The notes beneath the pieces are model-generated. The model was given only the letters and a program-made list of their open reading frames with translations, did no database searches and was not told where the DNA came from. DNA of 64,000 nucleotides from Gammaproteobacteria bacterium (GTDB lineage: Bacteria > Pseudomonadota > Gammaproteobacteria > Arenicellales > Poriferihabitantaceae), in contig JAUVBY010000001.1 in assembly GCA_030590945.1 (NCBI GenBank), positions 167 to 64,166 on the forward strand. The letters run 5' to 3'. The position numbers were made by a program, and so were the translations under genes. Positions 43,214 to 57,419 of this stretch are shown piece after piece (position 1 is the first letter of the stretch; each line of letters opens with the position of its first letter).

Positions 43214-44205
43214 GGCTTACCTCCAGTAGTGATTCGGGTTCGATTATGCGGGGCCAGCCAGTCCTGGTCAGGCCCCAGGGGTACGATACCAAAAGGGTTG
43301 AGCGAGAGGTGGCTGGCATAGTAGTGTCGCTTGATGTGTGCCAAATTCACCGTCCTGGCAATATCCGCATGCTGATACAGTTCCAGCATATAATGGTAGA
43401 GAGCGTCATATTCTTTTAGCTGTCGGATATTACATTTGAAGTGAGTATGGTAAACCGCATCAAAGCGAATCAGGGTGGTGAACAATCGCCAATCGGCTTC
43501 GGTGATTTGATTACCTGCTAGATAACGTTGATGGCTCAACCGTTGTTCCATGGCATCCAGTGTAGAAAATAGTGTACCGCAGTTTTTCTCATAGGCCTGC
43601 TGAGTGGTGGCAAAACCGGTTTTGTATACGCCGTTGTTAATGAAACGATATACCTGCGTATTTATTTCATCGATCTCGTCGCGTAATCGCTCAGGATAAA
43701 AATCCAGGGTGTTGCCGGTAATGTCATTGAAGGCCGTATTGAACATACGAATGATCTCAGATGATTCATTGTTCACAATGCGTTTCTGCAGCTTATCCCA
43801 CAACACCGGCACCGTGATGTTGCCAGCATATACGGATGAGCTTTGTGCGTAGCATTCGCTCAAATAGTCGCTGGCATACAGCGTATCACCGGTGGTGCCG
43901 TAGAGTCTGGCCGTCTCGCTGGTGTGCGTAAAGGACCAGCCTTTCTCTAACATGTCAGGATGAACCACACTTACCGAAACCAACTCCTCCAGTCCCTTGA
44001 GCTTGCGAAAAATAAGTGTGCGATGCGCCCAGGGGCAAGCCAGCGAGACGTAAAGGTGGTAACGGCCTGCTTGTGCCTCAAAACCAGGTTCACCGCTTGG
44101 GCCTGCTCTACCATCAACCGTTACCCAATGGCGAAATTCTGAGTCTTTACGCTGGTATTCGCCTTTGTTTATGCTGGTTTTCCAGCTGGAAGTTACGCTT
44201 TGCAT
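43210..44205 (-). CDS. yqjG: Glutathionyl-hydroquinone reductase (Xi-class GST, YqjG-like)
   Basis: 331 aa with the motif YHLYVSLACPWAHRTLI (CPWA active site). It overlaps the pirin gene start by 4 nt. Confidence 0.85.
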   Translation of the reverse strand: MQSVTSSWKTSINKGEYQRKDSEFRHWVTVDGRAGPSGEPGFEAQAGRYHLYVSLACPWAHRTLIFRKLKGLEELVSVSVVHPDMLEKGWSFTHTSETARLYGTTGDTLYASDYLSECYAQSSSVYAGNITVPVLWDKLQKRIVNNESSEIIRMFNTAFNDITGNTLDFYPERLRDEIDEINTQVYRFINNGVYKTGFATTQQAYEKNCGTLFSTLDAMEQRLSHQRYLAGNQITEADWRLFTTLIRFDAVYHTHFKCNIRQLKEYDALYHYMLELYQHADIARTVNLAHIKRHYYASHLSLNPFGIVPLGPDQDWLAPHNRTRITTGGKP

Positions 44206-44234
44206 GGGGTGGTCGCTTCTATTAAATTGTTGAT

Positions 44235-44630
44235 CTATGCTGTCGTAAGCTTGTTATCCAGGCTGATTTTTCCAGCGCCGGTAGACGCTAATACCAGGAA
44301 GCTACCTGCCAGCGCTATATTTTTCATGAACAATATCATTTGCATCTGATCATCGGGCTGGTAGTGAAAAATAAAGGCTGATACTGCACAGAATCCGGCT
44401 AATGCCAGGGCGGTCCAGCGCATCTTAAAACCAATGATAAGTGCAATGCCGCCGCCAATCTCAAGCAGGATGACCAGGGGAAGAAGGCCTCCGGGTATGC
44501 CCATCGCTTCCATATATCCTTGCGTGCCAGCATAAGCGCCAATTTTTTGTATTCCGGCGGGTAAAAATAAACTCGCCAGTAAAAGCCGACCGATCAGGTT
44601 GAATAGATTGTTTGTGGTCTGGTTAAACAT
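44235..44630 (-). CDS. DoxX-family membrane protein
   Basis: 131 aa from the ATG at 44630 (GAGGA upstream) with four TM segments. The 16-aa N-terminal extension in the tracked ORF is unlikely. Confidence 0.75.
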   Translation of the reverse strand: MFNQTTNNLFNLIGRLLLASLFLPAGIQKIGAYAGTQGYMEAMGIPGGLLPLVILLEIGGGIALIIGFKMRWTALALAGFCAVSAFIFHYQPDDQMQMILFMKNIALAGSFLVLASTGAGKISLDNKLTTA

Positions 44631-44764
44631 AGTTTTTCCTCGTTGTTTAGGTGGATGTTCAGTGCATTTATCAGGCAAATCTGGATAGAAGACACTTTAC
44701 AACATCAAGTATACGTGCAATATATAGAATGAATACTGAAATATATGGCATTAATCATTCGAAT

Positions 44765-45655
44765 ATGACGAACATTAAATTGGAGCAAATCAACGCCTTT
44801 GTGGCTGTATCTGAATATGGAGGCGTGAATGCGGCGGCAGAGAAGCTGTTTAAAAGCCCCTCTACTATCAGCCATGCGTTGAATAGATTGCAAGAGGCTT
44901 TGGGTCTAGCCCTGTTTGAGCAACAGGGGCGCCGGTTACACCTGACAGAACAAGGATCCACTTTGCTCAAGCAAGCCAGGGTTCTGCTTGATGAGAAGCA
45001 AACTTTGTTGAATATCGCGCAACATCTGCAACAGGACCATCGCGGTGAAATTGCGCTCGCGGTGGATGCCATTTTCCCGCATGGTCTATTATTAGACGCC
45101 TTGCAGGAATTTGCTGCCCGGTTCCCGCTTTGCCAGATTAAATTGCATGAAGGCGTATTGTCGGGTTCAGAAGAGCAATTGCTTAATGGTCAGGCGGATA
45201 TTTGTGTTGCGTACCGAGTTCCGCAGGGCTTTCTGGGGGAGCGGCTTATCGAAATTCCCTTTGTGCCGGTCGTCCATGCCGGTCATCCCCTGGCTCATGA
45301 ATCGTCTATTTCTTCTCGCACCCTAATGGCGCAGCGGCAGGTTGTCATCAGTGATTCGGGTAGCCAGGACAAGGTTGATTCGGGCTGGTTAAAAGCGACA
45401 CAACGCTGGAGCGTCTCCAGCATGCATACGGCGATTGAGATTATTAACAGCGGCATGGCCTTTGGGTGGGTTCCCCTGCATTTGATAAACAGGGAAATTA
45501 ACTCTGGAGAATTAATTCAATTACAACTCAAATCAGGCGGAGAAAAATCGGGATCCCTGTTTATAACCCTGGCAGATGAGTCCTGTGCGATGTCTCAGGC
45601 CCTGGCGGGGATGTTGAAATCCAGGATTACGGCCATTCCTTCACAGGCAGGCTGA
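44765..45655 (+). CDS. LysR-family transcriptional regulator
   Basis: 296 aa from the ATG at 44765 (MTNIKLEQINAFVAVSEYGG..). The wHTH reads FKSPSTISHALNRLQEALGLALFEQ. It is divergent from doxX-yqjG-pirin. The tracked GTG start at 44651 is probably too far upstream. Confidence 0.8.
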   Translation: MTNIKLEQINAFVAVSEYGGVNAAAEKLFKSPSTISHALNRLQEALGLALFEQQGRRLHLTEQGSTLLKQARVLLDEKQTLLNIAQHLQQDHRGEIALAVDAIFPHGLLLDALQEFAARFPLCQIKLHEGVLSGSEEQLLNGQADICVAYRVPQGFLGERLIEIPFVPVVHAGHPLAHESSISSRTLMAQRQVVISDSGSQDKVDSGWLKATQRWSVSSMHTAIEIINSGMAFGWVPLHLINREINSGELIQLQLKSGGEKSGSLFITLADESCAMSQALAGMLKSRITAIPSQAG

Positions 45656-45698: not shown

Positions 45699-45914
45699 TT
45701 AATTACGCGGCATGTAAGCCGCAACAAGCAGCGACAGACCAATCGCTCCGAACAACAGGGGATGGGTTGTCAGAGTATGTAATATCCCGCTCAAAGTATC
45801 GTGCTGCATGTGGCTATGGCCGGTATGGGCGAGCACGCCTGATGAAAACAGTGCGGTGGCTGCCGTAATCGAAAGGGTGCCTAAGGTTTTTTTCCAGACG
45901 TTTTTGTAGATCAT
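45699..45914 (-). CDS. Small His-rich membrane protein resembling the N-terminus of HupE/UreJ nickel transporters
   Basis: 71 aa from the ATG at 45914. It has a signal-like segment ending ..GVLA|HTGHSHMQHD, then SGILHTLTTHP, and one TM helix. Full-length HupE/UreJ proteins are much longer (recall), so it may be a truncated remnant. Confidence 0.35.
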   Translation of the reverse strand: MIYKNVWKKTLGTLSITAATALFSSGVLAHTGHSHMQHDTLSGILHTLTTHPLLFGAIGLSLLVAAYMPRN

Positions 45915-45924
45915 AATAAACTCG

Positions 45925-47646
45925 CTATTTAATTTTGACTTTGACCAGTTCTTCACCTTCCGGATCGGTCACGTGCACCGCGCAGGCGATGCAGGGGTCG
46001 AAACTATGGATGGTGCGAAGGATCTCGATGGGCTGTTTTGGATCGTACAGGGTATGGTTATCCTCCAGTGCTGCCTCGTAAGCCCCTGGAACACCTGCCG
46101 GATCACGCGGACCGGCGTTCCAGGTACTTGGAACCACGGCCTGGTAGTTATCTATTTTCCTGTCTTTGATCACGATGTAGTGCGCAAGGCCTCCGCGCGG
46201 GGCTTCCATAATACCTACACCACGGGCTTCAGCGGGCCATGAAGAGGGGTCCCACTGTTTTTCATTGAAAGTTTTGGTATCACCCGCCTTAATGTTGGCA
46301 ACCAGATTGTCGAACCAGCCCTGCATGTTATCCGCAATAATCTTGGTTTCCAGAGTGCGCGCAGCTGTTCGTCCCAGGGTTGAAAACAACGCGGTGACTG
46401 GAACATCCAGGGTGCGTAATGTCATGTCGACCAATTCTTTGGTTTGCTCGTGCCCTTTGGCATACAGCATTAATACACGCGCCAGCGGACCGACTTCCAT
46501 GGAGTGGCCTTTCCAGCGGGGTGATTTCAGCCAGGAATAGGATTGCTCGACGTCCAGATGTTCGTAAGGGGGTTTGGGGCCGGTATAATTAAGGTTAGTT
46601 TCACCGTCATAAGGGTGCAAACCTTTTTCTTTGCCGCCGCTGTAGTCATACCATGAGTGTGCGACATATTCCTGAATCTGATCGGCGGCATTCATATCGA
46701 TATCGTGAATCGTGGACAGGTCACGATTGAGGATAACACCGCTGGGGATTAGGAAACTGGAGGGGTCGTCCATGCCTTTTTCCGGGAAATCCCCAAAAGT
46801 CATGAAATTGCCCAGGCCTTCTCCGCGCGTGGTCCAGTCTTTGTAAAAACCCGCGATAGCCAGGGTGTCAGGTACGTAGACCTGATCTACGAAAGTTTTC
46901 ATTTCGCTGATGATTCCCTGTACCTGTGCCAGGCGTTTGGCATTGATCGCTGAATCCGAATTGAGATCGATCGGGCTGGGTACGCCGCCCACAACAAAAT
47001 TGGGGTGTGGATTTTTGCCGCCGAATATAGCGTGCAATTTGGCTACGTCGCGTTGCCAGGCTAAGGCTTCAAGATAGTGCGAGACCGCCATCAGGTTGGC
47101 TTCAGCAGGAAGTTTGTAAGCCGGGTGCCCCCAATAGGCTTTGGCAAAAATACCCAGTTGTCCTGATTCAACAAAGCCCTTGAGTTTTTTCTTCATGTCG
47201 GCGAAATAGCCAGGGGAAGATTTAGGGTAGGAACTGATAGATTGTGCCAGCTCCGAGGTGGCTTTAGGGTCTGCGTCCAGAGCGGAAACGACGTCCACCC
47301 AGTCCAGTGCATGCAGGTGATAAAAGTGCATGACGTGATCATGTACGTATTGCGCGCCGATCATAAGGTTACGGATTAACTGGGCATTCGGCGGAATGCT
47401 GTAATTCAGTGCGTTCTCCACAGAGCGCACCGAGGCAATACCATGCACCAGCGTGCACACGCCGCAGATCCGCTGCGCAAAGGCCCAGGCATCACGTGGG
47501 TCACGGCCCTTGAGGATGGTCTCGATGCCGCGCACCATGGTGCCGGCAGAATAGGCCTGGGCAATTTTATTCCCTTCCATTTGCGCTTCGATGCGCAGGT
47601 GGCCTTCGATACGGGTGATCGGATCAACGACGACGCGTTTGCTCAT
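45925..47646 (-). CDS. hynL: [NiFe] hydrogenase large subunit (group 1, Isp-type)
   Basis: 573 aa. The N-terminal motif is RIEGHLRIE ... RICGVCT. The C-terminal motif is DPCIACAVH, followed by a 17-aa extension that serves as the maturation-protease substrate. Confidence 0.93.
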   Translation of the reverse strand: MSKRVVVDPITRIEGHLRIEAQMEGNKIAQAYSAGTMVRGIETILKGRDPRDAWAFAQRICGVCTLVHGIASVRSVENALNYSIPPNAQLIRNLMIGAQYVHDHVMHFYHLHALDWVDVVSALDADPKATSELAQSISSYPKSSPGYFADMKKKLKGFVESGQLGIFAKAYWGHPAYKLPAEANLMAVSHYLEALAWQRDVAKLHAIFGGKNPHPNFVVGGVPSPIDLNSDSAINAKRLAQVQGIISEMKTFVDQVYVPDTLAIAGFYKDWTTRGEGLGNFMTFGDFPEKGMDDPSSFLIPSGVILNRDLSTIHDIDMNAADQIQEYVAHSWYDYSGGKEKGLHPYDGETNLNYTGPKPPYEHLDVEQSYSWLKSPRWKGHSMEVGPLARVLMLYAKGHEQTKELVDMTLRTLDVPVTALFSTLGRTAARTLETKIIADNMQGWFDNLVANIKAGDTKTFNEKQWDPSSWPAEARGVGIMEAPRGGLAHYIVIKDRKIDNYQAVVPSTWNAGPRDPAGVPGAYEAALEDNHTLYDPKQPIEILRTIHSFDPCIACAVHVTDPEGEELVKVKIK

Positions 47647-48107
47647 GATAGACCTCGCTTGCTTAAGAAATTGTTAAGAATTTGATATTGCGCTTCTCGT
47701 TCACCGGTTTCGCTGCCGTCATCGGTATCGATTGACCAGGCGGTTCTGGCCATGCGCGCTGAGGTAGCAGCCTGTAGTGCAGGGCCGGCTTTTTTATATC
47801 CTTCCGGCATTAACGCGGCTTCGCAGGCGCGTGCGACAAAATACGCAGCCTGGGCTTTCCAGTCTCCTTCCGAGCCGCAACGTGTATGGCTTTCGATGGC
47901 GGCGGCTTTGACGGTTTTGAAACTGGCGGCCAGTTCAGATGGGGTCGCACCGGGGTCGGATGCCACGCCCACATTGTTGGCGATTCGACTATCGTCCGTC
48001 AGTTCAAGCACGTGCTCGGTAAATTGCGCGGCTAACTGGCGCTGTAAATTGCCATCCAGCGTTCCAGCCACTTCTCTGAATTGAGTTTCATTATTAATCG
48101 TGGTCAT
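47643..48107 (-). CDS. Hypothetical acidic, Ala-rich protein inserted between isp2 and hynL
   Basis: 154 aa with no motif I recognise. Its stop overlaps the hynL ATG (ATGA) and its start lies 2 nt after the isp2 stop, so it is translationally embedded in the operon. Confidence 0.55.
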   Translation of the reverse strand: MTTINNETQFREVAGTLDGNLQRQLAAQFTEHVLELTDDSRIANNVGVASDPGATPSELAASFKTVKAAAIESHTRCGSEGDWKAQAAYFVARACEAALMPEGYKKAGPALQAATSARMARTAWSIDTDDGSETGEREAQYQILNNFLSKRGLS

Positions 48108-48109
48108 GC

Positions 48110-49378
48110 TTATGTCTCCACAGAATCGTCTAAATGTTCGGCCAGTGTCTCGGTCAGGCTGAGTACCGGTAATTCCATATGGTATTCCTCAAGGCCATCT
48201 TCGATATGAATTCGGCAGTTGGAACAGGCCGATACCAGCGCATCCGGATTGACTGCATCAATCTGATCTTTCTTGCGCTGAAATACCTTGATGCGTATTT
48301 CATCTGCACGCTCGTTGGAGCTGACGCCACCTCCGGCGCCACAGCACCAGTTCATGGCTCCGGCATCGGGCATCTCGACGAAATTATCAGAAAATTCCCT
48401 GATCAGCTTGCGCGGCTGCTCAAGTACCCCGCCACGGCGTGCAATCTGGCAGGGGTCGTGATATGTCAGGCGTTCGCTCATCTTGTCTTTGGTTTTAATC
48501 TTACCGGCGGCGCGCAATTCGTCCAGCACTTCCAGGATGTGCTTGACTTCAAAATCAAAGCGTTTACCAACAAGGTTGGGGCCCTCCCAGCGCAGCGCAG
48601 TATAGGCGTGTCCGCATTCCGGGCTGATGACGGTATTAACTTTCAGTTTCTCTGCGGCGTCCACGATGCGTTGCACCAGCTCTGCGGCAATCTCGGAGAC
48701 ACCAATTTGTATACCGCTGTTGGTGGCCTCAAAGGCTTCGCTTGAAAGCGTCCAGCTCACGCCTGCGTGTTTGAAAATTTTGGCAATCGCACCGATGTAT
48801 TCCGGGAAGTTCATGATTTCCATTGAAGACAGCATGCACAGATACTCCACGCCTTTCACATCCATGGGAATGCTCAGACCGGTATCTTCTTCCAGATGGC
48901 GAATCTGGGCTTGCAACGCCGGCAACTTGACCCCCATCGGGCTGCCAATTTCGACCGCGCGCCGTGTGGCGCCAACCAGGCTTTCCGGTGCGTGGCCGCT
49001 GGCCGCAAAGCCTTCACGCATTTTACGAATCATGTAGGCGATATCATTGCCGACCGGGCACACCATCGAACAGCGACCGCACATGGTACAGCTGTCGTAA
49101 ACCAGTTCTTCCCAGTCCGTCAGGTCCTGATCAGTGAGTGGTTTGCTGATTCCGGCCAGTTTGAGTAGTTTTCCCGTCAGGGTGTATTCCTGAAACCAGA
49201 CCTTACGCAGCGGTGCGAGCTTGTTGATCGGGGTATATTTTGGATCGCCGGTCTCGGTATAAAACAAACAGGCATCCGCACACATACCGCAGCTAACACA
49301 GCTACTGAAAAAAGCCGCGGTGGGTGCGTCGATCTGTTCTTTAAAAACCTGGGTGGCTCGTTCGGTTGCTTTACTCAT
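48110..49378 (-). CDS. isp2: Isp2: HdrD/DsrK-like Fe-S protein with CCG domains
   Basis: 422 aa with two ferredoxin-type clusters (CVSCGMCADAC, CTMCGRCSMVCP) and CCG-type Cys motifs (NWCCGAGGG, HDPC). Confidence 0.85.
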   Translation of the reverse strand: MSKATERATQVFKEQIDAPTAAFFSSCVSCGMCADACLFYTETGDPKYTPINKLAPLRKVWFQEYTLTGKLLKLAGISKPLTDQDLTDWEELVYDSCTMCGRCSMVCPVGNDIAYMIRKMREGFAASGHAPESLVGATRRAVEIGSPMGVKLPALQAQIRHLEEDTGLSIPMDVKGVEYLCMLSSMEIMNFPEYIGAIAKIFKHAGVSWTLSSEAFEATNSGIQIGVSEIAAELVQRIVDAAEKLKVNTVISPECGHAYTALRWEGPNLVGKRFDFEVKHILEVLDELRAAGKIKTKDKMSERLTYHDPCQIARRGGVLEQPRKLIREFSDNFVEMPDAGAMNWCCGAGGGVSSNERADEIRIKVFQRKKDQIDAVNPDALVSACSNCRIHIEDGLEEYHMELPVLSLTETLAEHLDDSVET

Positions 49379-50034
49379 GACTGGACCCCTTTGATGCCTG
49401 TCACAGCACCGTTATAAAAACGCGCCAGGAACAAGGTGAACGCATGGCTAAGTTTGGTGAATGGGATTGCGATCATCAGTAATTCGACGCTCATAATGTG
49501 CAGGGCGATTAACATCGGCCCGGAGAAACCGATTCGGTGAAACGCCATATAACCCGTGATCAGTGGCAAGGTGGTGAGCGCCCAGACAATATAGTCCATG
49601 GGCCCGGACAAATAACGCTTCACTTTATTGTTCAGGCGATTAATCAATACCGCGATCAAGGCCAGTATCGTTATTACTGCAAAGGCGTCTACGATGGTGG
49701 TCGGCAGCGCCGGCCAGCTCAGCCCGGTCAGTTTGCTGAATACGAGGATATGGGGCGCTAGCAGGAAGATCACTACGAACAGGCCTATATGAAATATATA
49801 ACCCGCCACAATGGTAAAGGTTGAGCGTTGGAAGGTTCCCGAATCCGGAACGGAACGGCTCACGATGGTGCGTAAGCCGCCCGTGGTAGCCGAGCCTTTG
49901 GGAGCTGCAAGATTTTCTTTTCGCCCCAACATCAGAATTTCGATGAGGCGCACAATTATGCCCATCACCAGAATGACGGTGGCAATTTCAAAAGCAGGGC
50001 CACGCGCCCATAATAACCATTCAGTAGCTGTCAT
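49375..50034 (-). CDS. isp1: Isp1: integral membrane b-type cytochrome-like subunit (NarI/DsrM-like)
   Basis: 219 aa with 5 TM segments and conserved His in the helices. It overlaps the isp2 start (ATGA). Confidence 0.75.
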   Translation of the reverse strand: MTATEWLLWARGPAFEIATVILVMGIIVRLIEILMLGRKENLAAPKGSATTGGLRTIVSRSVPDSGTFQRSTFTIVAGYIFHIGLFVVIFLLAPHILVFSKLTGLSWPALPTTIVDAFAVITILALIAVLINRLNNKVKRYLSGPMDYIVWALTTLPLITGYMAFHRIGFSGPMLIALHIMSVELLMIAIPFTKLSHAFTLFLARFYNGAVTGIKGVQS

Positions 50035-50047
50035 GATTGTTCCTCGT

Positions 50048-51190
50048 TTATGTCCCGGGGCTTAAATCGTCCAGGGTAGTGGTTTGATGTTCGCTCAACG
50101 CGCGTTTTTTATTCGCCTTGTTAAGCGCCCCTGCTGCGACACCCGCGGCCGCACCCGCCGCGACCGCGTACACAGCGGTTCGTGCGATATCTGTAGTTGG
50201 AGTAGACAGAGCTTCATAAAAACCACCGGCATCCCAGAATTTAGGTTCCGAGCAGCCCAGACAGGGGTGTCCCGCCTCGATCGGGAAGCTGGTTCCATCA
50301 TTCCACTTGGTTACCGCGCAGGCGTTGTAGGTAGTGGGCCCCTTGCAACCCAGTTTGTACAGGCACCAGCCTTTCCTGGCGCCTTCATCGTCGAAGGTTT
50401 CCGCGAATAAGCCCTTGTCATAGAAGGGTCGGCGATAGCAGCGATCATGAATACTCTGCCCGTAGAAAGCGACGGGACGCCCGAGTTGATCCAGTTCAGG
50501 CAGGCCGCCAAAGGTTAGAAAGTGCGCGAGTACGCCGGTGATTACCACCGGAATTGGTGGGCAACCTGGCACATTAACCACCGGCTTATCGGTAATGATC
50601 TCCTGTACGGAGACAGCGCCTGTCGGGTTTGGATCTGCGTTTGGCAGCCCGCCAAACGCCGAGCAGCTGCCCACGGCGATAATGGCTGCGGCGCCCGCGG
50701 CCGCCTCTTTGAGCATATCTTCATTACTGACACCGGCGATGGTTGAATAGCCCGGATTACCCAGGGGAATGGAGCCATCGACGACCAGCACGTAGTTGCC
50801 GTAATTTTCTTTCATCGCCTCTTCGCGTGCGGCTTCGGCAGCGTCACCGGCTGCGGCCTGCAAGGTGTGATGATAATCGAGTGAAATAGCATCAAATATC
50901 AGCCCCTCGATTGTGGGCGCGTGCGAACGTGTTAGCGACTCTGTGCAACCCGTACATTCCTGAAAAGATAACCATATCACCGATGGCCGGCGCGCGTTCT
51001 CCAGTGCTTCAGCGATGCGCGGAATCATTGTGGGAGGCAGGGCCATGAGCGAGGCTGTGGTGGCGCAGAATTTCAGAAAACCGCGCCGGCTAATGCCCTG
51101 GCGACGCAATGCTTCACCAACGGTTTCTCCTTGTGCCCCGGTGCTTTTAACTGCTGGGTTTAAGTCCATCGGGGATTTAACTGGTTCCAT
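50048..51190 (-). CDS. hynS: [NiFe] hydrogenase small subunit with a Tat signal
   Basis: The Tat motif is ISRRGFLKF and Fe-S ligands include ECTGCTES, GSCSAFGG and PGCPP. A hydrophobic C-terminal anchor is present. The ATG at 51190 has GGAGA 6 nt upstream; the tracked start at 51196 is also possible. Confidence 0.92.
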   Translation of the reverse strand: MEPVKSPMDLNPAVKSTGAQGETVGEALRRQGISRRGFLKFCATTASLMALPPTMIPRIAEALENARRPSVIWLSFQECTGCTESLTRSHAPTIEGLIFDAISLDYHHTLQAAAGDAAEAAREEAMKENYGNYVLVVDGSIPLGNPGYSTIAGVSNEDMLKEAAAGAAAIIAVGSCSAFGGLPNADPNPTGAVSVQEIITDKPVVNVPGCPPIPVVITGVLAHFLTFGGLPELDQLGRPVAFYGQSIHDRCYRRPFYDKGLFAETFDDEGARKGWCLYKLGCKGPTTYNACAVTKWNDGTSFPIEAGHPCLGCSEPKFWDAGGFYEALSTPTTDIARTAVYAVAAGAAAGVAAGALNKANKKRALSEHQTTTLDDLSPGT

Positions 51191-51623
51191 TATCATTCTC
51201 CGTAGAGGTCGTTTTTAGAGTATCGCCAAGTTGTTCGAGGCCGGCCTGAATGTCGCCTTCCTGAGCCTGCAAAATATCGGGGATCAGGGCAATTTCAATG
51301 TACTTTCCAAGTATCGTGCCGTCGGTATTGCTATGCGTAATCAGCCACACGCCGGGGTATTGAGTTTCTATGATGTCGCTACGCCCGAGTGCGTTGAGTT
51401 CAACCCTGACTTCGCCCTGGCCCAGTGCGGTTTCAATATGGGCTTCTTCACCCGGGGCCAATGGCATGCTACGCAGGTCGATGATGGTTTGTTCGCCTTT
51501 GTCCAGCAAGGCGCCGAGAGCATGGCGAACTTCATGCAGCAGGGGCGTGACGTTGCCCGTGAACTCTTCGGTTACCCTGACAGGAATGTCAAAATTGGCG
51601 GGCAGGGCATCGCCGCGATTCAT
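51177..51623 (-). CDS. hupH: HupH/HyaF-like hydrogenase expression/formation protein
   Basis: 148 aa. The pattern ..GNVTPLLHEVRHAL...IDLRSMPLAPGEEAHIETALGQGEVRV..GVWLI fits the HupH C-terminal domain family (recall). Confidence 0.6.
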   Translation of the reverse strand: MNRGDALPANFDIPVRVTEEFTGNVTPLLHEVRHALGALLDKGEQTIIDLRSMPLAPGEEAHIETALGQGEVRVELNALGRSDIIETQYPGVWLITHSNTDGTILGKYIEIALIPDILQAQEGDIQAGLEQLGDTLKTTSTENDNGTS

Positions 51624-52165
51624 GGCGAAATTTCCTCAAGATGGCTCGCAGGGAGCAATGTTTGGCCAACTGTGGGTAGTTGTTTCCAGTCTCTCAATAT
51701 TTTTTCAATTTCCTCGATGGCCTGCGGGATCGCAGCGGCAACGACAGGGCTGGGAAATTCACCCCAGTCGATTTTCTCAGCCTGAATGCCGACCAGTACG
51801 CGTGGTTCGGGCAGGCACTCAGTTAAACGGGCGATATCCAGTAAATCCAGCAGACTGACTTCATGTACGCTGCGTCTTGGCAGGCCGAGAAAACGATCCA
51901 TTTCCTCGTTGTGAAGGCAGCAGACGGTGCCGGGGGCCTGGTGGAAATTTGCTGCATCAATTACGATCAGCCGGCCGGCTTTTTCAATCCAGCTGGCGAG
52001 CGAAAAGCTCAAGGTGCCGCCATCAATATATTCAACACCGTCGATATCAGGATATTTGTCCTGCAGCGCATTTAATACATGAATGCCAATTCCCTCGTCC
52101 GAGAGCAGTGTGTTTCCAACCGCAAGTATTAAGGTATTTTTAGAACGCATTTTTATCTTTTCCAT
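51620..52165 (-). CDS. Hydrogenase maturation endopeptidase (HyaD/HupD/HynD family)
   Basis: 181 aa with the motif LILAVGNTLLSDEGIGIHV and a later His. The start may be the internal Met (MRSKN..). Confidence 0.85.
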   Translation of the reverse strand: MEKIKMRSKNTLILAVGNTLLSDEGIGIHVLNALQDKYPDIDGVEYIDGGTLSFSLASWIEKAGRLIVIDAANFHQAPGTVCCLHNEEMDRFLGLPRRSVHEVSLLDLLDIARLTECLPEPRVLVGIQAEKIDWGEFPSPVVAAAIPQAIEEIEKILRDWKQLPTVGQTLLPASHLEEISP

Positions 52166-52272: not shown

Positions 52273-52536
52273 ATGTGCCTGGGTATCCCGATGCAGGTAA
52301 AGTCGATCGATCAGTATCAGGCGATTTGCGAGGCCAAAGGCATCGAGCGTGACGTAAGCCTGTTTATGCTACAGGATGAGGACATCAGGCCCGGTGATTT
52401 TGTGGTGGTGCATGTGGGTTACGCGATCCAGAAGATTTCTCAGCAGGAAGCACAATCAGCATGGGAAGTTTATGATCAGATGCTCGCAGCCGAAGATGCG
52501 CTGGCCGAAGAGCTGGTAGACGCTCCCGGCGCGTGA
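52273..52536 (+). CDS. hypC: Hydrogenase assembly chaperone HypC
   Basis: 87 aa beginning MCLGIPMQV. Confidence 0.92.
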   Translation: MCLGIPMQVKSIDQYQAICEAKGIERDVSLFMLQDEDIRPGDFVVVHVGYAIQKISQQEAQSAWEVYDQMLAAEDALAEELVDAPGA

Positions 52537-52543
52537 CACGCCC

Positions 52544-52909
52544 ATGCATGAGCTAGCGATTTGCCAGGCGCTAATGGATCAGGTCGATCAGATTGTTCTT
52601 GAGCAGCATGCGACAGGGGTGGCGAAAATTATTTTACAGATTGGGCCTTTGTCGGGTGTTGAGCCGCACTTGCTGAAGCAGGCCTTTCCTCTGGCCAGTG
52701 CGGGTACACTGGCGGAGCATAGCCTGTTGGAGATTAAACCACAGGCGATCGAGGTTGAATGCTCAAAGTGTAGCCAGCGTACGCTTGCGAAACCCAATCG
52801 ACTGGTGTGTGGGGCCTGTGGCGACTGGAAAACCCGTTTGATTAGCGGCGATGAAATGTTGCTGGAAAGTGTTGAACTTATTTGCGAAGAGGAGATGAAT
52901 CATGTGTGA
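52544..52909 (+). CDS. hypA: Hydrogenase nickel-insertion protein HypA
   Basis: 121 aa beginning MHELAICQ, with a zinc site CSKC...CGAC. Confidence 0.92.
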   Translation: MHELAICQALMDQVDQIVLEQHATGVAKIILQIGPLSGVEPHLLKQAFPLASAGTLAEHSLLEIKPQAIEVECSKCSQRTLAKPNRLVCGACGDWKTRLISGDEMLLESVELICEEEMNHV

Positions 52910-53726
52910 TACCTGTGGCTGTAACATTACAGATGGCAATGCGCACCTGGTAAAGCCGGGTGGTAAGTTGTCTTTGACCGCGTCGGGCAATGAAGCCGTA
53001 TCAGTGTTGCGTAGCTTGCTTCATGAAAACGATCATGCCGCCGCGCATAACCGCAGCCATTTTGACGAACATGGTGTACTGGCAATCAACCTGATGTCTT
53101 CGCCCGGAGCCGGGAAAACAGCCCTGCTGGAAGCGACGATACAAGCTCTGGGTGACCGTTATCGTTTTGCGGTGGTGGAAGGTGATCTTGAAACCGAGAA
53201 TGATGCTGAGCGTATACGGCGCCATGGAATTCCAGCGGTACAAATCACCACTGGCAGTGCCTGTCATCTGGATGCTCACATGGTGCATGATGCCCTGCAT
53301 GAACTGAATCTCGATGATATCGATGTATTATTTATAGAGAACGTGGGTAATCTGGTATGCCCGGCCAGTTTCGATCTGGGCCAACACTTAAATGTGACCT
53401 TATTGTCCGTGCCGGAAGGCGATGACAAGCCCGCCAAGTACCCGGTAATATTTCGCGTAGCGGATCTGGTGCTGCTGACCAAGGCCGACCTGTTGCCTGT
53501 ACTGGACGATTTCAGCCCCGAGAAAGCCGAACAAAATCTGCGTAACCTGGCTTCTGAGGCGCCTTTGTATACGGTGACCGTTAAATCAGTCCTCGCGCTT
53601 GAAAGCTGGTTGAACTGGCTGAAGGCTGAAGTTAAAGCTCAACGGGCGCGCGTTGCGAAAGGGGAGACATCGCAACCGGCGATCCAGCCGGAAGGTGCGG
53701 CATTGCATGAAAGCTCCCCTCTTTAA
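52902..53726 (+). CDS. hypB: Hydrogenase nickel-incorporation GTPase HypB
   Basis: 274 aa. The N-terminus is MCDTCGC, the P-loop is SSPGAGKT, and ENVGNLVCP is present. The last four codons and the stop lie inside MITE-like element Y. Confidence 0.92.
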   Translation: MCDTCGCNITDGNAHLVKPGGKLSLTASGNEAVSVLRSLLHENDHAAAHNRSHFDEHGVLAINLMSSPGAGKTALLEATIQALGDRYRFAVVEGDLETENDAERIRRHGIPAVQITTGSACHLDAHMVHDALHELNLDDIDVLFIENVGNLVCPASFDLGQHLNVTLLSVPEGDDKPAKYPVIFRVADLVLLTKADLLPVLDDFSPEKAEQNLRNLASEAPLYTVTVKSVLALESWLNWLKAEVKAQRARVAKGETSQPAIQPEGAALHESSPL

Positions 53727-53831
53727 CAAAGAAGGGTTGGGGGAGATTTGGGTGTTGCAAGCAGTTTTGGAATATCAATACCTTGTCTTCCGCTCAAATC
53801 CCCCTCTATCCCCCTTTAATAAAGGGGGAGG
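53714..53831 (+). mobile_element. MITE-like element Y (same family as 37392..37512)
   Basis: Both roughly 37-bp hairpin-containing termini match the reverse complement of element X. It spans the hypB 3' end and the hypB-hypD spacer. Confidence 0.75.
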
Positions 53832-53852
53832 TAATTCTGGAGCATTAAACCC

Positions 53853-54953
53853 ATGACCACTACCGCAAAAAAATGGCTGGAGCGTATTCATGCCTTGCCG
53901 CTTGAAGGCGTCACCAAAATTATGAATGTTTGCGGCGGGCATGAGCGTTCAATCACCATGGCTGGTTTACGAAAGGTTTTACCGGACGAAATTGAACTGG
54001 TGCCGGGGCCGGGTTGTCCGGTGTGTATTTGCCCGGAAGAGGACGTGTTTGAAGCGATCCAGCTGGCGCTGAATGAAGACATAATCCTGATTGCTTTTGG
54101 TGATATGCTGCGTGTGCCGGTAAACGTATCTAAAACTCGGGCACGTACGCTTGAACAGGCCAAAGCAGCCGGCGCCGATATTCGGCCGATCGCGACTCCC
54201 CGGGAGGCCGTTGATATTGCCGCTCAGAATCCGGATAAAGCCGTCGTATTTTTCGCCGCAGGATTTGAAACCACCACTGCACCAGTGGCGTCTATGTTAG
54301 TGCAGGGGGTGCCGAAAAATCTCTTCATACTGTTATCCGGCAGGCTCACCTGGCCCGCGGTGGCCATGTTACTCGATTCCGGCCAGGCCGCCTTTCAAAC
54401 GCTGATTGCACCGGGGCATGTCGCCACAGTAATGGGTCCCGAAGAATGGCAGTTTGTACCGGAGGAGCATAAAATGCCGGCAGCCGTTGCTGGATTCAGT
54501 CCGGAATCGCTGTTGGCAGCGATGTATTCGGTATTGCGTCAGAGGGTTGAAGGCAAGGCCTTCCTTGATAATTGTTATCCGGAGCTGGTTCGCGCCGGGG
54601 GCAACCCGACGGCGCAGGCCCAGCTAAAAACCTCGATGGACGTGGTGGATGCTAACTGGCGGGGAATCGGGGTAATTCCACAATCAGGCTTTGCTTTGAG
54701 TGAGGCGTATGCGCAACACAATGCGCGGAAGCAATTTCCCAGTTACGCCGAAGATGCGCGTAAACGCGCCGGCGAAATGCCGCCCGGTTGCGATTGCGCG
54801 AAAGTGGTGCTGGGCCAGATTTATCCGGATCAGTGTCGTTTGTATGCCAACGCCTGTGTCCCCAGGAATCCGGTGGGGCCGTGCATGGTGTCTGATGAAG
54901 GCGCTTGCCGGATATGGTGGTCGGGTGGTGTACGCAAAAACGCTGTTTCGTAG
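53853..54953 (+). CDS. hypD: Hydrogenase maturation protein HypD
   Basis: 366 aa with the motifs CGGHE, GPGCPVC and a C-terminal Cys cluster. Confidence 0.92.
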   Translation: MTTTAKKWLERIHALPLEGVTKIMNVCGGHERSITMAGLRKVLPDEIELVPGPGCPVCICPEEDVFEAIQLALNEDIILIAFGDMLRVPVNVSKTRARTLEQAKAAGADIRPIATPREAVDIAAQNPDKAVVFFAAGFETTTAPVASMLVQGVPKNLFILLSGRLTWPAVAMLLDSGQAAFQTLIAPGHVATVMGPEEWQFVPEEHKMPAAVAGFSPESLLAAMYSVLRQRVEGKAFLDNCYPELVRAGGNPTAQAQLKTSMDVVDANWRGIGVIPQSGFALSEAYAQHNARKQFPSYAEDARKRAGEMPPGCDCAKVVLGQIYPDQCRLYANACVPRNPVGPCMVSDEGACRIWWSGGVRKNAVS

Positions 54954-54992
54954 TTCTGGAAGCAATGGAGTTATCGATCAGCCCCGTCGACA

Positions 54993-55104
54993 GGATTGCG
55001 TCATTGAGGAAGAAAGTGACGTGGCAAATTACATGGATGACGTATTATGCAAACCACGAGAAAGGCATAAAACATCTGGATTGTCGCGCTACGCGCGCAA
55101 TGAC
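54993..55104. repeat. Short TIR-bearing MITE-like element in the hypD-hypF spacer
   Basis: GTCATTGAGGAAGAAAGTGACGTGGCAA (55000-55027) faces GGATTGTCGCGCTACGCGCGCAATGAC (55078-55104), giving GTCATTG...CAATGAC ends. The element is preceded by GGATTGC (54993-54999). Only a single copy is present in this window. Confidence 0.35.
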
Positions 55105-55112
55105 ATTGCAAA

Positions 55113-57419
55113 ATGAAAGATAAATCGGTTGCCCGGAAAATCTACGTAAGCGGTCGGGTTCAGGGCGTTGGCTTCAGGCCATATATTTACCGCCTCGCTG
55201 ATCACTGCCAGCTGACCGGTAGTGTGTGTAATCGCATGGGCCAGGTCGAAATTGTTGTGCAGGGCAGGGCTGAGCAGGTAGATCAGTTTGGCGCTGTTCT
55301 GGTCGAACTATCACCGCGGATTGCAAAACCATTTATTGTGTCCAGCAAAGCCGTGCCCCCGAAAGAGCGGGATAAATTTGAAATCTTGCCGAGTGAAGCA
55401 AAGGGCGAGGCCTCAATACATGTGCCGCCTGATTTTTTCACTTGCCCCGATTGCCTGGCGGAGCTGCGTGATCCGAAAAATAGGCGATACGCTTACCCCT
55501 TTATTAACTGCACCCAATGCGGGCCACGTTATACCCTGATCGAAGGCTTGCCATACGATCGGCCTAATACCAGCATGGCCGGTTTTAAACTGTGTGATGA
55601 TTGCAGGAAAGAATACGAGGCACCGCTGAATCGTCGTTTTCACGCGGAACCGATCGCCTGCCCGACGTGCGGGCCGGCACTTTGTTATGAATCGGCTGCG
55701 CTGAAAACAGGTACTGATCTGGCGCCGCTGAGGCAGGCTGTAAAGGCTTTACGTAATGGTCAGATTGTGGCGGTAAAAGGAATTGGTGGTTACCACCTGA
55801 TATGTGATGCGCGTAATAAAGCTGTGGTTGATCGCCTGCGCGCATCCAAGCATCGTCCGCATAAGCCCCTTGCGGTGATGTTCGTGGCGGAAGCTTATCG
55901 GGAAGATTCTGAATTAAACCGCGCAGTGATTGTGCCGGATGCGCAGTGGGACCGACTTAATCAGCCGGATCGGCCAATAGTATTGTTGCGCAAGCAAGGC
56001 GATTGCGGGCTGGCTGAATCAATAGCGCCCGGGCTAAATGAAATAGGAGTGATGCTGGCGTACAGCCCGTTACACGATGTGTTGCTGCGTGAATTTGGCG
56101 GGCCAGTGGTGGCCACTTCCGGGAACCTGAGTGGTGAGCCGGTAATTACTTCAAGTGCTATGGCTGCGCGCCGACTTGCGGGAGTGGCGGATGCCTTTTT
56201 GCATCACAACCGACCCATTGTTCGCCCGGCAGATGATTCTGTACTGCGTTTTATCGCCGGCCGTCCGCGGACAATGCGTTTAGGGCGCGGTTTGGCACCG
56301 CTGGAGCTGACCTTGCCCTTTAGCTTGCCGGAACCCGTTCTGGCGCTTGGGGGGCATATGAAAGTGACAGTTGCACTCGCGTGGGGCCGGCGAATAGTGG
56401 TTTCTCCGCATATTGGTGAAATGGAGTCGCCACGTAGCCTTAGGGTTTTTGAGCAGGTGCTGGGTGATCTTCAGGCTTTGTACGGCGTTGTTGCGAAGCG
56501 ACTGATTTGTGATGCCCACCCTGCGTATGCCAGTCATCGATGGGCGTTGAAACAGGATTTACCCGTCAATACTGTGTGGCATCATCACGCGCATGCTTCA
56601 TCGCTGGTTTTAGAGCCCATGTCCACATTTTCCGGGCAGGAAAAAATGCTGGCTTTCACTTGGGACGGAGTCGGCTGGGGGCCGGATGAAACACTTTGGG
56701 GTGGAGAGGCCTTGCTGGGTACCCCGGGGAACTGGCAGAGATTTGCGCATTGGCGGCCTTTTAATGTGCCCGGAGGTGATCGGGCCGGCCGCGAGCCGTG
56801 GCGCAGTGCGGCGGCTTTGTGTTGGGCCCTGGGGATTAATTATTCGCGGTCCGAAGCGCTGCGGGAAAATACTATAGAACTGCTGCACACCGCCTGGGAG
56901 AAAAGGATTAACGCCCCGCAAACGAGCGCAGTGGGGCGCCTGTTTGATGGTGCCTCTGCGCTGTTGGGTCTTGTCGAGCAGGCGAGTTTTGAGGGGCAGG
57001 GGCCAATGTATCTCGAAGCACTTGCCGAAGGGATTCGTGGTTCGACGATATTATTGCCCATCCATGTTTTACCGGACAAGTCAGGTTTAAAGGGCAAGGG
57101 GTACCAAATCGACTGGGCGCCGCTGGTCAGGCATATGCTGGATGACGAACTAAGCCCCGGACAGCGCGCGGCAGACTGGCATGAATCGATGGCGAAAGCC
57201 TTGCTGGTGGTTTCCGAGCTGGCAAGGAAAGAACACGCAATAGAGCGTATCGGTCTGTCAGGGGGTGTGTTTCAGAATCGCGTTCTGAGTGAGCGGGTGA
57301 TCCAGCTGTTAAAGAAACAGGGATTCGATTATCAGTTTCCCGGGCAGGTTCCAGTGAATGATGGTGGCTTATGCGTGGGGCAGATCGTGGAATATTTATA
57401 TCAACAAAATTCAGGTTAA
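55113..57419 (+). CDS. hypF: Carbamoyltransferase HypF
   Basis: 768 aa. It carries an acylphosphatase domain (VSGRVQGVGFRPYIYRLA), two CxxC-x18-CxxC zinc fingers, and YrdC-like and Kae1-like domains. Confidence 0.93.
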   Translation: MKDKSVARKIYVSGRVQGVGFRPYIYRLADHCQLTGSVCNRMGQVEIVVQGRAEQVDQFGAVLVELSPRIAKPFIVSSKAVPPKERDKFEILPSEAKGEASIHVPPDFFTCPDCLAELRDPKNRRYAYPFINCTQCGPRYTLIEGLPYDRPNTSMAGFKLCDDCRKEYEAPLNRRFHAEPIACPTCGPALCYESAALKTGTDLAPLRQAVKALRNGQIVAVKGIGGYHLICDARNKAVVDRLRASKHRPHKPLAVMFVAEAYREDSELNRAVIVPDAQWDRLNQPDRPIVLLRKQGDCGLAESIAPGLNEIGVMLAYSPLHDVLLREFGGPVVATSGNLSGEPVITSSAMAARRLAGVADAFLHHNRPIVRPADDSVLRFIAGRPRTMRLGRGLAPLELTLPFSLPEPVLALGGHMKVTVALAWGRRIVVSPHIGEMESPRSLRVFEQVLGDLQALYGVVAKRLICDAHPAYASHRWALKQDLPVNTVWHHHAHASSLVLEPMSTFSGQEKMLAFTWDGVGWGPDETLWGGEALLGTPGNWQRFAHWRPFNVPGGDRAGREPWRSAAALCWALGINYSRSEALRENTIELLHTAWEKRINAPQTSAVGRLFDGASALLGLVEQASFEGQGPMYLEALAEGIRGSTILLPIHVLPDKSGLKGKGYQIDWAPLVRHMLDDELSPGQRAADWHESMAKALLVVSELARKEHAIERIGLSGGVFQNRVLSERVIQLLKKQGFDYQFPGQVPVNDGGLCVGQIVEYLYQQNSG

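Follow-up and report, generated by a model that had tools for sequence, protein, structure and literature searches.

The Isp-type [NiFe] hydrogenase operon in the window (the whole 64,000-nucleotide stretch of gammaproteobacterial DNA that was analysed) carries a fifth gene, orf154, between isp2 and hynL. We call this gene X, as we do its family members elsewhere, and are highly confident of the combined reading that X is a real, soluble, helical and selected protein, that its family is dedicated to Isp-type clusters, and that the isp2-hynL slot is its ancestral position, from which it has moved in sublineages. In sulfur oxidisers, symbiotic ones as well as free-living ones, Isp-type hydrogenases couple H2 to the metabolism of sulfur, and the gene set of this enzyme type was defined from two purple sulfur bacteria. 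In the present sampling, most gammaproteobacterial Isp-type loci have a fifth conserved gene and the model organisms are the locus-level exception; X was overlooked because these organisms do not have it inside the operon. It could help to explain the wiring or assembly of Isp-type enzymes and the difficulty of heterologous Hyn enzyme expression, and it merits a family entry of its own, while the way in which group 1e gene organisation is described needs correcting.

Gene content of the hydrogenase locus

The locus is a group 1e (Isp-type) [NiFe] hydrogenase cluster, as seen from the grouping of HynL, the presence of isp1 and isp2 between hynS and hynL, and the Tat signal of HynS. HynL is 76% identical to Allochromatium HynL (L089), lies inside the clade of Isp-linked HynL in a neighbour-joining tree, and has the A. 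vinosum Isp-type enzyme as its best PDB match (3MYR_B, 1025 bits vs 726 for the runner-up). The hynS-to-hynL gene order given in the initial annotation, which had been made from the sequence alone, was confirmed, and the whole operon reads hynD-hupH-hynS-isp1-isp2-orf154-hynL on the minus strand of the window, with hynD as its first gene. The maturation genes hypC-hypA-hypB-hypD-hypF (52273..57419, plus strand) run divergently from it. The features are as follows:

hynD, 52165..51620, minus strand: HyaD/HybD-type large-subunit endopeptidase (Pfam HycI 9.4e-21, TIGR00072 5.9e-38)
hupH, 51623..51177, minus strand: hydrogenase expression protein (Pfam HupH_C 3.1e-28), overlapping the start of hynS
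hynS, 51196..50048, minus strand: small subunit, 382 aa (matches to NiFe_hyd_SSU_C, Oxidored_q6 and TIGR00391)
isp1, 50034..49375, minus strand: membrane b-type-cytochrome-like anchor of the DsrM/TmcC/HmcE kind, 219 aa (NCBIfam TmcC 8.5e-40, HmcE 1.1e-29)
isp2, 49378..48110, minus strand: Fe-S protein, 422 aa (Pfam CCG 7.9e-18 and Fer4_8, NCBIfam DsrK 7.9e-72 and TmcB 2.4e-62)
orf154, 48107..47643, minus strand: 154 aa, between isp2 and hynL
hynL, 47646..45925, minus strand: large subunit, 573 aa (Pfam NiFeSe_Hases 3.8e-241)
small ORF 3' of hynL, 45699..45956, minus strand: no Pfam match
hypC, 52273-52536, plus strand: Pfam HupF_HypC
hypA, 52544-52909, plus strand: Pfam HypA
hypB, 52902-53726, plus strand: Pfam cobW
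hypD, 53853-54953, plus strand: Pfam HypD
hypF, 55113-57419, plus strand: Pfam HypF domains

The Tat signal annotated in HynS was found as SRRGFLK at residue 36 (TIGR01409 1.5e-4). The gene boundary given as 51190 corresponds to the third codon (a second Met), the longest open reading frame starting at 51196. Of the five transmembrane segments claimed for Isp1, four are clear by crude hydropathy and the fifth is weaker. The description of Isp2 as an HdrD/DsrK-like Fe-S protein holds: this cytoplasmic protein has a CCG domain as well as two CX2CX2CX3C motifs, and no transmembrane segment. Both junctions of orf154 were read directly and are as originally described: the isp2 TAA is followed by GC and then the orf154 ATG, a gap of 2 nt, while at the other end the stop codon of orf154 (TGA) and the start codon of hynL share the sequence ATGA. 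The C-terminus of HynL has a 15-aa extension, VTDPEGEELVKVKIK, after the DPCIACAVH motif. The small ORF behind hynL probably begins with the ATG at 45914 and is then 71 aa long; its product is hydrophobic at the N-terminus, contains the stretch HTGHSHMQH and has a transmembrane segment (62-80) at the C-terminal end. The ORF is kept behind hynL at three further loci (L005, L008 and L009) with 40-70% identity.

The orf154 protein and its family

The product of orf154 is a real, soluble cytoplasmic protein under purifying selection. Comparison with orthologues gave a dN/dS of 0.04-0.10, which together with hundreds of syntenic homologues sets it far apart from a chance ORF, and the gene has its own Shine-Dalgarno sequence (GGAG, 7 nt 5' of the ATG). 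The protein is acidic, Ala-rich and helical, as had been noted (pI 5.04, 16.9% Ala, seven predicted helices), has a mass of ~16.5 kDa, two Trp and the two Cys reported earlier (positions 77 and 95), and neither a transmembrane segment nor a signal peptide was found in it. The structure prediction recommended alongside the initial annotation yielded a confident model of a soluble seven-helix bundle (AlphaFold, pLDDT 91.6). Its invariant Cys (C77) belongs to an exposed loop, HTRCG, which joins helices 4 and 5. This loop is part of the family motif H74-T-R-C77-G..G-D-W83..Q-A.Y-F..R93, and 23 columns are invariant among 50 diverse family members, while H74 is replaced by Tyr in the family's second branch. 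The loop Cys is present in every hydrogenase-linked arrangement class and absent only from divergent stand-alone copies, and 118 of 314 family members have a single Cys only.

X belongs to no named family, and its fold is not one that could be recognised. Its relatives form 952 clusters at the 90% identity level and 131 at the 50% level, and all named members are annotated as "hypothetical"; no Pfam or NCBIfam family matched orf154 at E<=0.1, and the family has no PDB match. The earlier statement that orf154 lies outside the known accessory families was borne out, with no HyaE, HybE, HupF/HypC or rubredoxin-type match in Pfam or NCBIfam, and a scan of 50 family members at E<=1 likewise gave no profile match to HyaE/HoxO, HybE, HypC/HupF, HupH/HyaF, HycI, HupI/J or HypA-F. 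These small cytoplasmic proteins (HyaE/HoxO, HybE, HyaF/HoxQ/HupH and HypC/HupF) resemble X in being encoded in [NiFe] clusters, evolving fast and being dispensable in some lineages; HupH and HypC are each present separately in the window besides X, and the thioredoxin-like fold of HyaE and the beta-barrel of HypC are both unlike the bundle of X. A TorD/DmsD/NarJ-type REMP identity was rejected in the absence of a Pfam match and of any such protein among the 50 Foldseek PDB matches listed, of which the best E-value was 0.72. The highest Foldseek TM-scores were with the DUF416 (YjaG-like) structures 2q9r and 3f7c (TMq 0.60 and 0.53), which are likewise all-helical bundles and similar in size to X, a structural match which is not significant, given E-values of 4.2 and 1.2, 11-12% identity and an rmsd of 6.6-8.4 Å, and the family scan contained no DUF416 Pfam match. 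X shows no homology to the 407-aa Orf2 of Alteromonas macleodii either (hhalign probability 0.05%, E 0.8), an accessory protein required for maximal HynSL activity (PMC3102683) and encoded upstream of hynD-hupH-hynS in that organism.

Distribution of the family and history of the operon

Searching for syntenic homologues, as the initial annotation had suggested, returned hundreds, so that orf154 is not peculiar to the window. The family is found in at least 117 reference species and is genetically dedicated to gammaproteobacterial Isp-type (group 1e) clusters; most of the sulfur-oxidising Gammaproteobacteria have it along with their Isp-type hydrogenase. Thiothrix caldifontis and Endothiovibrio diazotrophicus are among the carriers in culture. 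The isp2-X-hynL order was present in 80/80 genome loci. In the second branch of the family X is linked to a cluster with isp1/isp2 in 67 of the 72 informative loci: it occupies the isp2-hynL slot in 47 loci, the cluster head near hypC/hynD in 17 metagenome loci and a position behind hynL in two (L120 and L130), and is unlinked in 5/72. Two more unlinked copies were found (L092 and L096), and the unlinked copies have no recurrent alternative neighbour. X also stands at the cluster head by hypC/hynD/hupH in L220-L222, upstream of the four-gene core in some purple sulfur bacteria (Thiorhodovibrio, Thiohalocapsa), and beside a HycI-type protease in L094 and L095, where isp2 is missing from the vicinity. 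Among the loci surveyed X was never found beside any other hydrogenase group, and it is absent from the Alteromonas (L218) and Bradyrhizobium BTAi1 (L219) loci, which have close HynSL relatives (HynL identity 63% and 69%, respectively) without Isp genes. A tblastn search for X in all plasmids gave no match.

The claim that the operons of the model organisms consist of four genes proved correct: the Allochromatium and Thiocapsa loci were read directly, and the hyn genes of T. bogorovii BBS have the consecutive tags LT988_03130-03145 (PMC10892978). These operons (A. vinosum and Thiocapsa roseopersicina/bogorovii BBS) share the hynS-isp1-isp2-hynL order with the operon in the window, as well as the Tat signal of HynS, the DsrM/TmcC-like Isp1 and the DsrK/HdrD-like Isp2, whereas the coupled fifth gene here takes the place of an isp2-hynL gap of 1-60 nt, and hynD and hupH also belong to the operon here. 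No X was found within 7 kb of the Allochromatium, Thiocapsa and Thiodiazotropha loci, and hynD is likewise not at the locus in the first two; absence of X is meant at the level of the locus throughout.

The initial annotation had regarded orf154 as an extra gene, but on the HynL tree it looks ancestral rather than added: Allochromatium, Thiocapsa and Thiodiazotropha are sisters of lineages in which X has already relocated, so that in the present sampling the operon seems to have had five genes originally, with the four genes of the textbook version as a derived state. In several sublineages X has moved to the cluster head, behind hynL or out of the locus. While the translational coupling proposed earlier is confirmed by the junctions in the window, coupling to hynL is not essential, as X also occurs at other positions.

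Possible roles of X

X is an accessory component of the hydrogenase, outside the catalytic core, as follows from its fast evolution and its tolerance of relocation. The view that orf154 is an unassigned protein stands, and between the two roles suggested for it, subunit or large-subunit chaperone, the evidence leans slightly away from a chaperone specific for HynL and towards the Isp module. Our leading mechanism, which we put forward tentatively and at less than even odds, is that X is a cytoplasmic partner of the Isp2/Isp1 module. X would act at the cytoplasmic face with Isp2/Isp1 and not with the periplasmic HynSL dimer, as a small fifth component or adaptor of Isp2, with the invariant, Arg-flanked C77 offered to the CCG active site of Isp2, which is of the HdrD/DsrK type; by analogy with DsrC and DsrK, it might join H2-derived electrons to cytoplasmic thiol/sulfur chemistry, or else tune or assemble the Isp2 site. 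Partnership with Isp2 is supported by the restriction of X to Isp-containing clusters, by its cytoplasmic location, like that of Isp2, and by the retention of the loop Cys in all hydrogenase-linked arrangement classes. Co-variation was scored as mirror-tree distance correlation with the shared signal removed, a weak kind of evidence, and although all partial r are modest, the highest were with Isp2 (0.30-0.37) and Isp1 (0.27-0.30), compared to -0.12 to -0.16 for HynL, 0.11 for HynD and 0.06 for HupH. The only locus with a strongly divergent, relocated Isp2, that of Methylovirgula, lacks X too, and there 31% of otherwise invariant positions are changed in Isp2 vs 1.5% in HynL. Counting against this partnership, the substitution rate of X (0.49) matches HynD (0.48) and HupH (0.51) rather than Isp2 (0.24), relocated X lands by hypC/hynD or hynL and never by isp2, invariant Isp2 positions show no relaxation in loci without nearby X, and H74 is not kept in the second branch.

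A narrower version, in which X would be a cytoplasmic thiol-redox partner of Isp2 and a structurally new functional analogue of DsrC, we consider unlikely. The analogy draws on Isp2 being a DsrK homologue (7.9e-72) and on X being small, soluble and cytoplasmic, with a conserved Cys on an exposed element and its gene beside that of an HdrD-like subunit. DsrC/TusE identity itself was rejected: X is an all-helical bundle with no PF04358 match and no sequence or fold relation to DsrC, and DsrC has two Cys on a C-terminal arm, whereas the single conserved Cys of X lies in an internal loop; since many X proteins have a single Cys, a two-Cys mechanism like that of DsrC cannot apply literally. If true, this version would show the cytoplasmic destination of the electrons of Isp-type hydrogenases, and the four-gene textbook operon would be a derived state, the partner gene having left the operon. 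Genuine DsrC-family genes occur separately near some Isp loci (L001, L090). There is also a likeness to the Desulfovibrio TmcABCD complex, as Isp1 and Isp2 match TmcC and TmcB; its cytochrome-b and HdrD-like pair receives electrons from periplasmic H2 oxidation and is encoded with TmcD, a small cytoplasmic protein. TmcD is described as tryptophan-rich, whereas X has two Trp, and X gave no NCBIfam match at E<=0.1.

The main rival, in our view somewhat less likely than the leading mechanism, is that X serves the hydrogenase proper as a cytoplasmic chaperone of maturation or assembly, where it would hold pre-HynL or a HynS-HynL precursor during cofactor insertion, during C-terminal processing by HynD or ahead of Tat export, as a functional analogue of HyaE/HoxO, HybE or HoxQ-type factors with a different fold. 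A small, acidic, helical protein of the cytoplasm would suit this role, the substitution rate of X equals those of HynD and HupH, and small orphan genes in [NiFe] clusters have mostly proved to be maturation factors. Its neighbours point the same way: the ATGA coupling to hynL in the isp2-X-hynL arrangement, hypC/hynD/hupH at the cluster head (the 17 metagenome loci and L220-L222), hynL ahead of X in L120 and L130, and the HycI-type protease in L094 and L095. The Allochromatium and Thiocapsa loci lack both X and hynD, which fits X travelling with maturation genes. Conversely, there is no residual co-variation of X with HynL, HynD or HupH, the C-terminal tails of HynL are the same with or without X, X is absent from Alteromonas and Bradyrhizobium BTAi1, whose maturation needs should be similar although they have no Isp genes, and neither the TorD/DmsD-like helical REMPs nor any other known chaperone family or fold gave a match to X.

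We regard it as improbable that X is an assembly factor for Isp2, for instance in insertion of the non-cubane Fe-S cluster or docking of Isp2 to Isp1, rather than a permanent subunit or a redox substrate. This would reconcile the accessory-like rate with the co-variation with Isp2/Isp1 and the restriction to Isp-containing clusters, and a cluster could be ligated transiently by the conserved Cys/His/Arg loop, but X proved related to known Fe-S assembly proteins neither in sequence nor in fold, the His of that loop is lost in the second branch, and DsrK/HdrD homologues elsewhere are not known to need such a factor. Least probable of all is that X has only a loose connection with the hydrogenase, for example as a regulator, a sensor or a stress protein, and is retained for convenience of co-expression, which would suit the unlinked copies with no recurrent alternative neighbour (5/72 informative loci, L092 and L096) and the divergent stand-alone members without the Cys, but X lacks any domain for DNA binding or sensing, its linkage to Isp-type clusters holds in 93-100% of informative loci even though the lineages are very divergent, and the commonest arrangement has X under tight translational coupling on both sides.

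The hydrogenase operon of the window and its fifth gene

The Isp-type (group 1e) [NiFe] hydrogenase operon of the window is of a known kind, and what is new is a conserved fifth gene of such loci, orf154, whose product belongs to a widespread, unnamed and structurally unmatched family restricted to Isp-type hydrogenases. Apart from this gene the operon is ordinary, and family scans upheld every one of the gene identities (hynS, isp1, isp2 and hynL) assigned in the initial annotation.

Features of the hydrogenase locus
hynD: 52165..51620, minus strand
hupH: 51623..51177, minus strand
hynS: 51196..50048, minus strand; NiFe small-subunit domains and Tat motif SRRGFLK (family scans)
isp1: 50034..49375, minus strand; match to TmcC/HmcE membrane anchors
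isp2: 49378..48110, minus strand; CCG and ferredoxin domains, DsrK match (7.9e-72)
orf154: 48107..47643, minus strand
hynL: 47646..45925, minus strand; large-subunit family match (3.8e-241)
hypCABDF block: 52273-57419, divergent from the hynD-hynL operon

Among solved structures HynL is closest to 3MYR_B of the A. vinosum Isp-type enzyme (1025 bits), and the computed identity to Allochromatium HynL is 76%. Direct reading bore out the junctions claimed for orf154, a 2-nt gap after the isp2 stop (TAA-GC-ATG) and an ATGA overlap with hynL, and a GGAG is present 7 nt 5' of the orf154 ATG.

A small ORF lies directly 3' of hynL (45699-45956, minus strand, probable start 45914), and is kept behind hynL in the closest relatives (loci L005, L008 and L009, 40-70% identity), while a 71-aa ORF is likewise found behind hynL in Alteromonas (L218, 8879-9094). 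The product had no match in a family search. Its hydrophobic N-terminus, His-rich HTGHSHMQH stretch and C-terminal TM segment may point to a small metal-related protein of the membrane or periplasm. Downstream of the operon, the gene scanned at 44651-45655 (plus strand) encodes a LysR-family regulator, and the region 42368-45655 also holds three minus-strand ORFs, labelled from reading their translations as small membrane, glutathione-S-transferase-like and pirin-like proteins.

The orf154 protein family

A first search gave 39 clusters with 47-97% identity to orf154, an exhaustive phmmer search 131 clusters at the 50% level, and a profile search with the family 952 clusters at the 90% level. 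These homologues, the dN/dS of 0.04-0.10 against the nearest orthologues and the 23 columns invariant across 50 diverse members mark orf154 as a genuine gene. The invariant columns centre on H/Y-T-x-C-G..G-D-W..Q-A.Y/H-F-V-A-R-A, with further conservation of Q22-R23, D39, R118-M-A-R121 and E136...Q140-Y141. Neither a TM segment nor a signal peptide was found in the protein (16.5 kDa, pI 5.04), which is therefore predicted to be cytoplasmic and soluble. All members carrying database names are 'hypothetical' or 'uncharacterized', including those of the Solemya pervernicosa symbiont (WP_078483464.1), Endothiovibrio diazotrophicus (WP_459862808.1), Ca. Sedimenticola endophacoides (OQX32479.1) and Thiogranum (MDT8387118.1).

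The window protein had no match in Pfam or NCBIfam, and none of the 50 members scanned matched a family above threshold, with DUF1266 matched weakly, below threshold, by 7/50. The family profile gave nothing significant against all PDB chains (best E 2.2). The structure prediction and profile checks proposed in the initial annotation thus matched no known accessory family, and yielded a confident AlphaFold2 model (50-sequence alignment, pLDDT 91.6, pTM 0.89) of seven helices, with C77 in the loop joining helices 4 and 5. A Foldseek search of the PDB with this model gave nothing with an E below 0.7; the top TM-scores (0.53-0.60, non-significant) were to DUF416 proteins, the function of which is itself unknown.

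With regard to the cysteines, an obligatory dithiol with an either/or second cysteine (C95 or C123) was ruled out, as C77 is the sole cysteine in 118 of 314 members. Secondary cysteines fall in alignment columns corresponding to positions 37, 73, 95, 98, 117 and 123 of the window protein and differ by subclade (C123 47%, C98 28%, C117 23%, C95 22%), with no consistent pairing rule; C95 of the window is restricted to its own subclade.

Distribution and origin of the five-gene arrangement

We scanned one genome per species with patterns particular to one branch of the family (Y89, 'YFVARA'), and found relatives in 117 species. Named carriers were Gammaproteobacteria or unclassified MAGs, bar a few MAG labels which look like binning errors, and include Thiothrix caldifontis DSM 21228, Ca. 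Thiomargarita nelsonii, Achromatium and Solemya symbionts. The syntenic homologue that the initial annotation proposed to look for was present in all 80 loci returned, as isp2-orf154-hynL on the same strand, and in 7 more from contig look-ups, so that the gene is not confined to the window. Since these patterns fitted only the Y89 branch, the other branch (H89, 'HFVA') was sought in metagenomes with a hand-built degenerate DNA pattern, giving 120 loci with 117 true members, 72 of them informative; the same order was found in 47 of these.

Position of the orf154 homologue in the 72 informative H89-branch loci
(a) isp2-orf154-hynL: 47 loci
(b) upstream of [hypC]-hynD-hupH-hynS-isp1-isp2-hynL: 17 loci
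(c) directly or closely 3' of hynL: 2 loci
Other linkage: 1 locus
No hydrogenase gene within 2.5 kb either side: 5 loci

In the surveyed loci no homologue adjoined a hydrogenase of another class, and unlinked copies had no recurrent neighbour (none common to more than 4 of 19 loci). More divergent members (~30% identity) stand alone, and the cysteine is gone in two of the three examined. One of these two cysteine-less members (loci L094 and L095, 4645-7447) follows a HycI-type protease gene at a distance of 300 nt and adjoins IS605 OrfB/TnpB, and hydrogenase structural genes are absent from the surrounding 7 kb. This protein occurs on >60 contigs, and it and the protease would seem to be either a remnant that was retained or a pair put to a new use. 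The Alteromonas cluster contains neither Isp genes nor an orf154 homologue. Its Orf2, which is reported to be needed for maximal HynSL activity and lies upstream of hynD-hupH-hynS (PMC3102683), was rejected as a homologue despite this (b)-like place, being an unrelated protein of 407 aa.

Only isp1 and isp2 are described between the structural genes of T. roseopersicina/bogorovii BBS (PMC3102683), where the four locus tags are consecutive (LT988_03130-03145; PMC10892978), and A. ferrooxidans has been given the same description (PMC7735108). The Endoriftia accessions are likewise consecutive in a four-gene locus, with no protein evidence for an orf154 product (PMC7787665), and full-text literature searches found no mention of a fifth gene in an Isp-type operon. 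With the A. vinosum HydL sequence, recovered from a PDB alignment, as query for purple sulfur loci, we found an isp2-hynL spacing of 1-60 nt in Allochromatium humboldtianum, Thiocapsa sp. KS1 and Ca. Thiodiazotropha. No member was detected by HMM within 7 kb of these loci, which leaves room for an unlinked copy elsewhere in the genome, and six-frame translations of four-gene loci contained no cryptic remnants (HMM). The hynD gene is likewise missing from the locus in Allochromatium and Thiocapsa. A 152-aa ORF in A. humboldtianum (L089, 2859-3317) is unrelated to orf154 (E 0.33); it is Arg/Glu-rich, has no Pfam match, and occupies the usual hynD slot upstream of hupH without being related to HynD. 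In Thiorhodovibrio, Thiohalocapsa sp. ML1 and a related metagenome contig the cluster has the four-gene core and is headed by an orf154 homologue (E ~1e-65). The four-gene operon given in the initial annotation is thus correct for T. bogorovii BBS, Allochromatium and Thiocapsa, but not as a general pattern, given the 80 genome loci.

In a neighbour-joining HynL tree, constructed without support values, loci lacking orf154 are sister to lineages in which the gene had earlier moved out from between isp2 and hynL: Allochromatium and Thiocapsa cluster with (b) loci and Thiodiazotropha with (c) loci, while (a) fills the remaining clades, the deepest included. On this basis the most parsimonious reading is that isp2-orf154-hynL would be ancestral for the radiation sampled and the textbook operon derived, and the distribution of the family suggests that the accepted four-gene description reflects atypical model organisms.

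Two alphaproteobacterial plasmid loci also lack orf154. On pHY1 of Methylovirgula sp. HY1 (L088, 5908-12195) the Isp-type cluster is rearranged, with isp2 relocated to give isp2-hynD-hupH-hynS-isp1-hynL, and Isp2 is highly divergent, with changes at 31% of otherwise invariant positions in Isp2 versus 1.5% in HynL. Plasmid pBBta01 of Bradyrhizobium sp. BTAi1 (L219, 5965-8725) has a hynS-hynL pair without isp1, isp2 or orf154, and in the neighbour-joining tree its HynL is nested in a clade of Isp-type loci with orf154, which would fit a single loss of the isp1-isp2-orf154 segment after plasmid transfer.

Possible roles: partner of Isp2 or maturation chaperone

The observation of an extra ORF in an Isp-type operon is confirmed, and of its interpretation the reality of the gene and its lack of a named family were borne out; on the choice offered between a subunit and a large-subunit chaperone, two soft lines of evidence disagree. 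We tentatively take the protein to be a partner of Isp2. It occurs only in clusters containing isp1/isp2, is cytoplasmic like Isp2, and is also absent from the sole locus with a heavily altered Isp2 (Methylovirgula), all of which we counted for a link with the Isp module. In partial correlations, with the signal common to all operon proteins regressed out, its distances followed those of Isp2 (0.30-0.37) and Isp1 (0.27-0.30), and were not correlated with those of HynL (-0.12 to -0.16), HynD (0.11) or HupH (0.06). A role as maturation chaperone for HynSL, which we consider somewhat less likely, is favoured by the substitution rate (0.49), which equals that of HynD (0.48) and HupH (0.51) and is unlike that of the structural subunits (0.17-0.38), and by the moved copies, which are always beside hypC/hynD or hynL and never isp2. 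The HynL C-terminal extension does not differ between loci with and without orf154, and thus does not discriminate these readings. Relaxation of invariant positions in the partner proteins was essentially absent from loci L089-L091, which lack orf154, and three single HynL changes in such loci fall at different positions, giving no convergent substitution signal.

For a partner of Isp2, the conserved, Arg-flanked loop cysteine would suit CCG proteins of the HdrD/DsrK type, with their thiol/disulfide chemistry. Finally, DsrC/TusE-family genes (PF04358) adjoin the Isp-type clusters of two unrelated loci, one with orf154 and the other without (L001, 3897-4286; L090, 9699-10058), which may hint at a DsrC-like protein as the substrate of Isp2.
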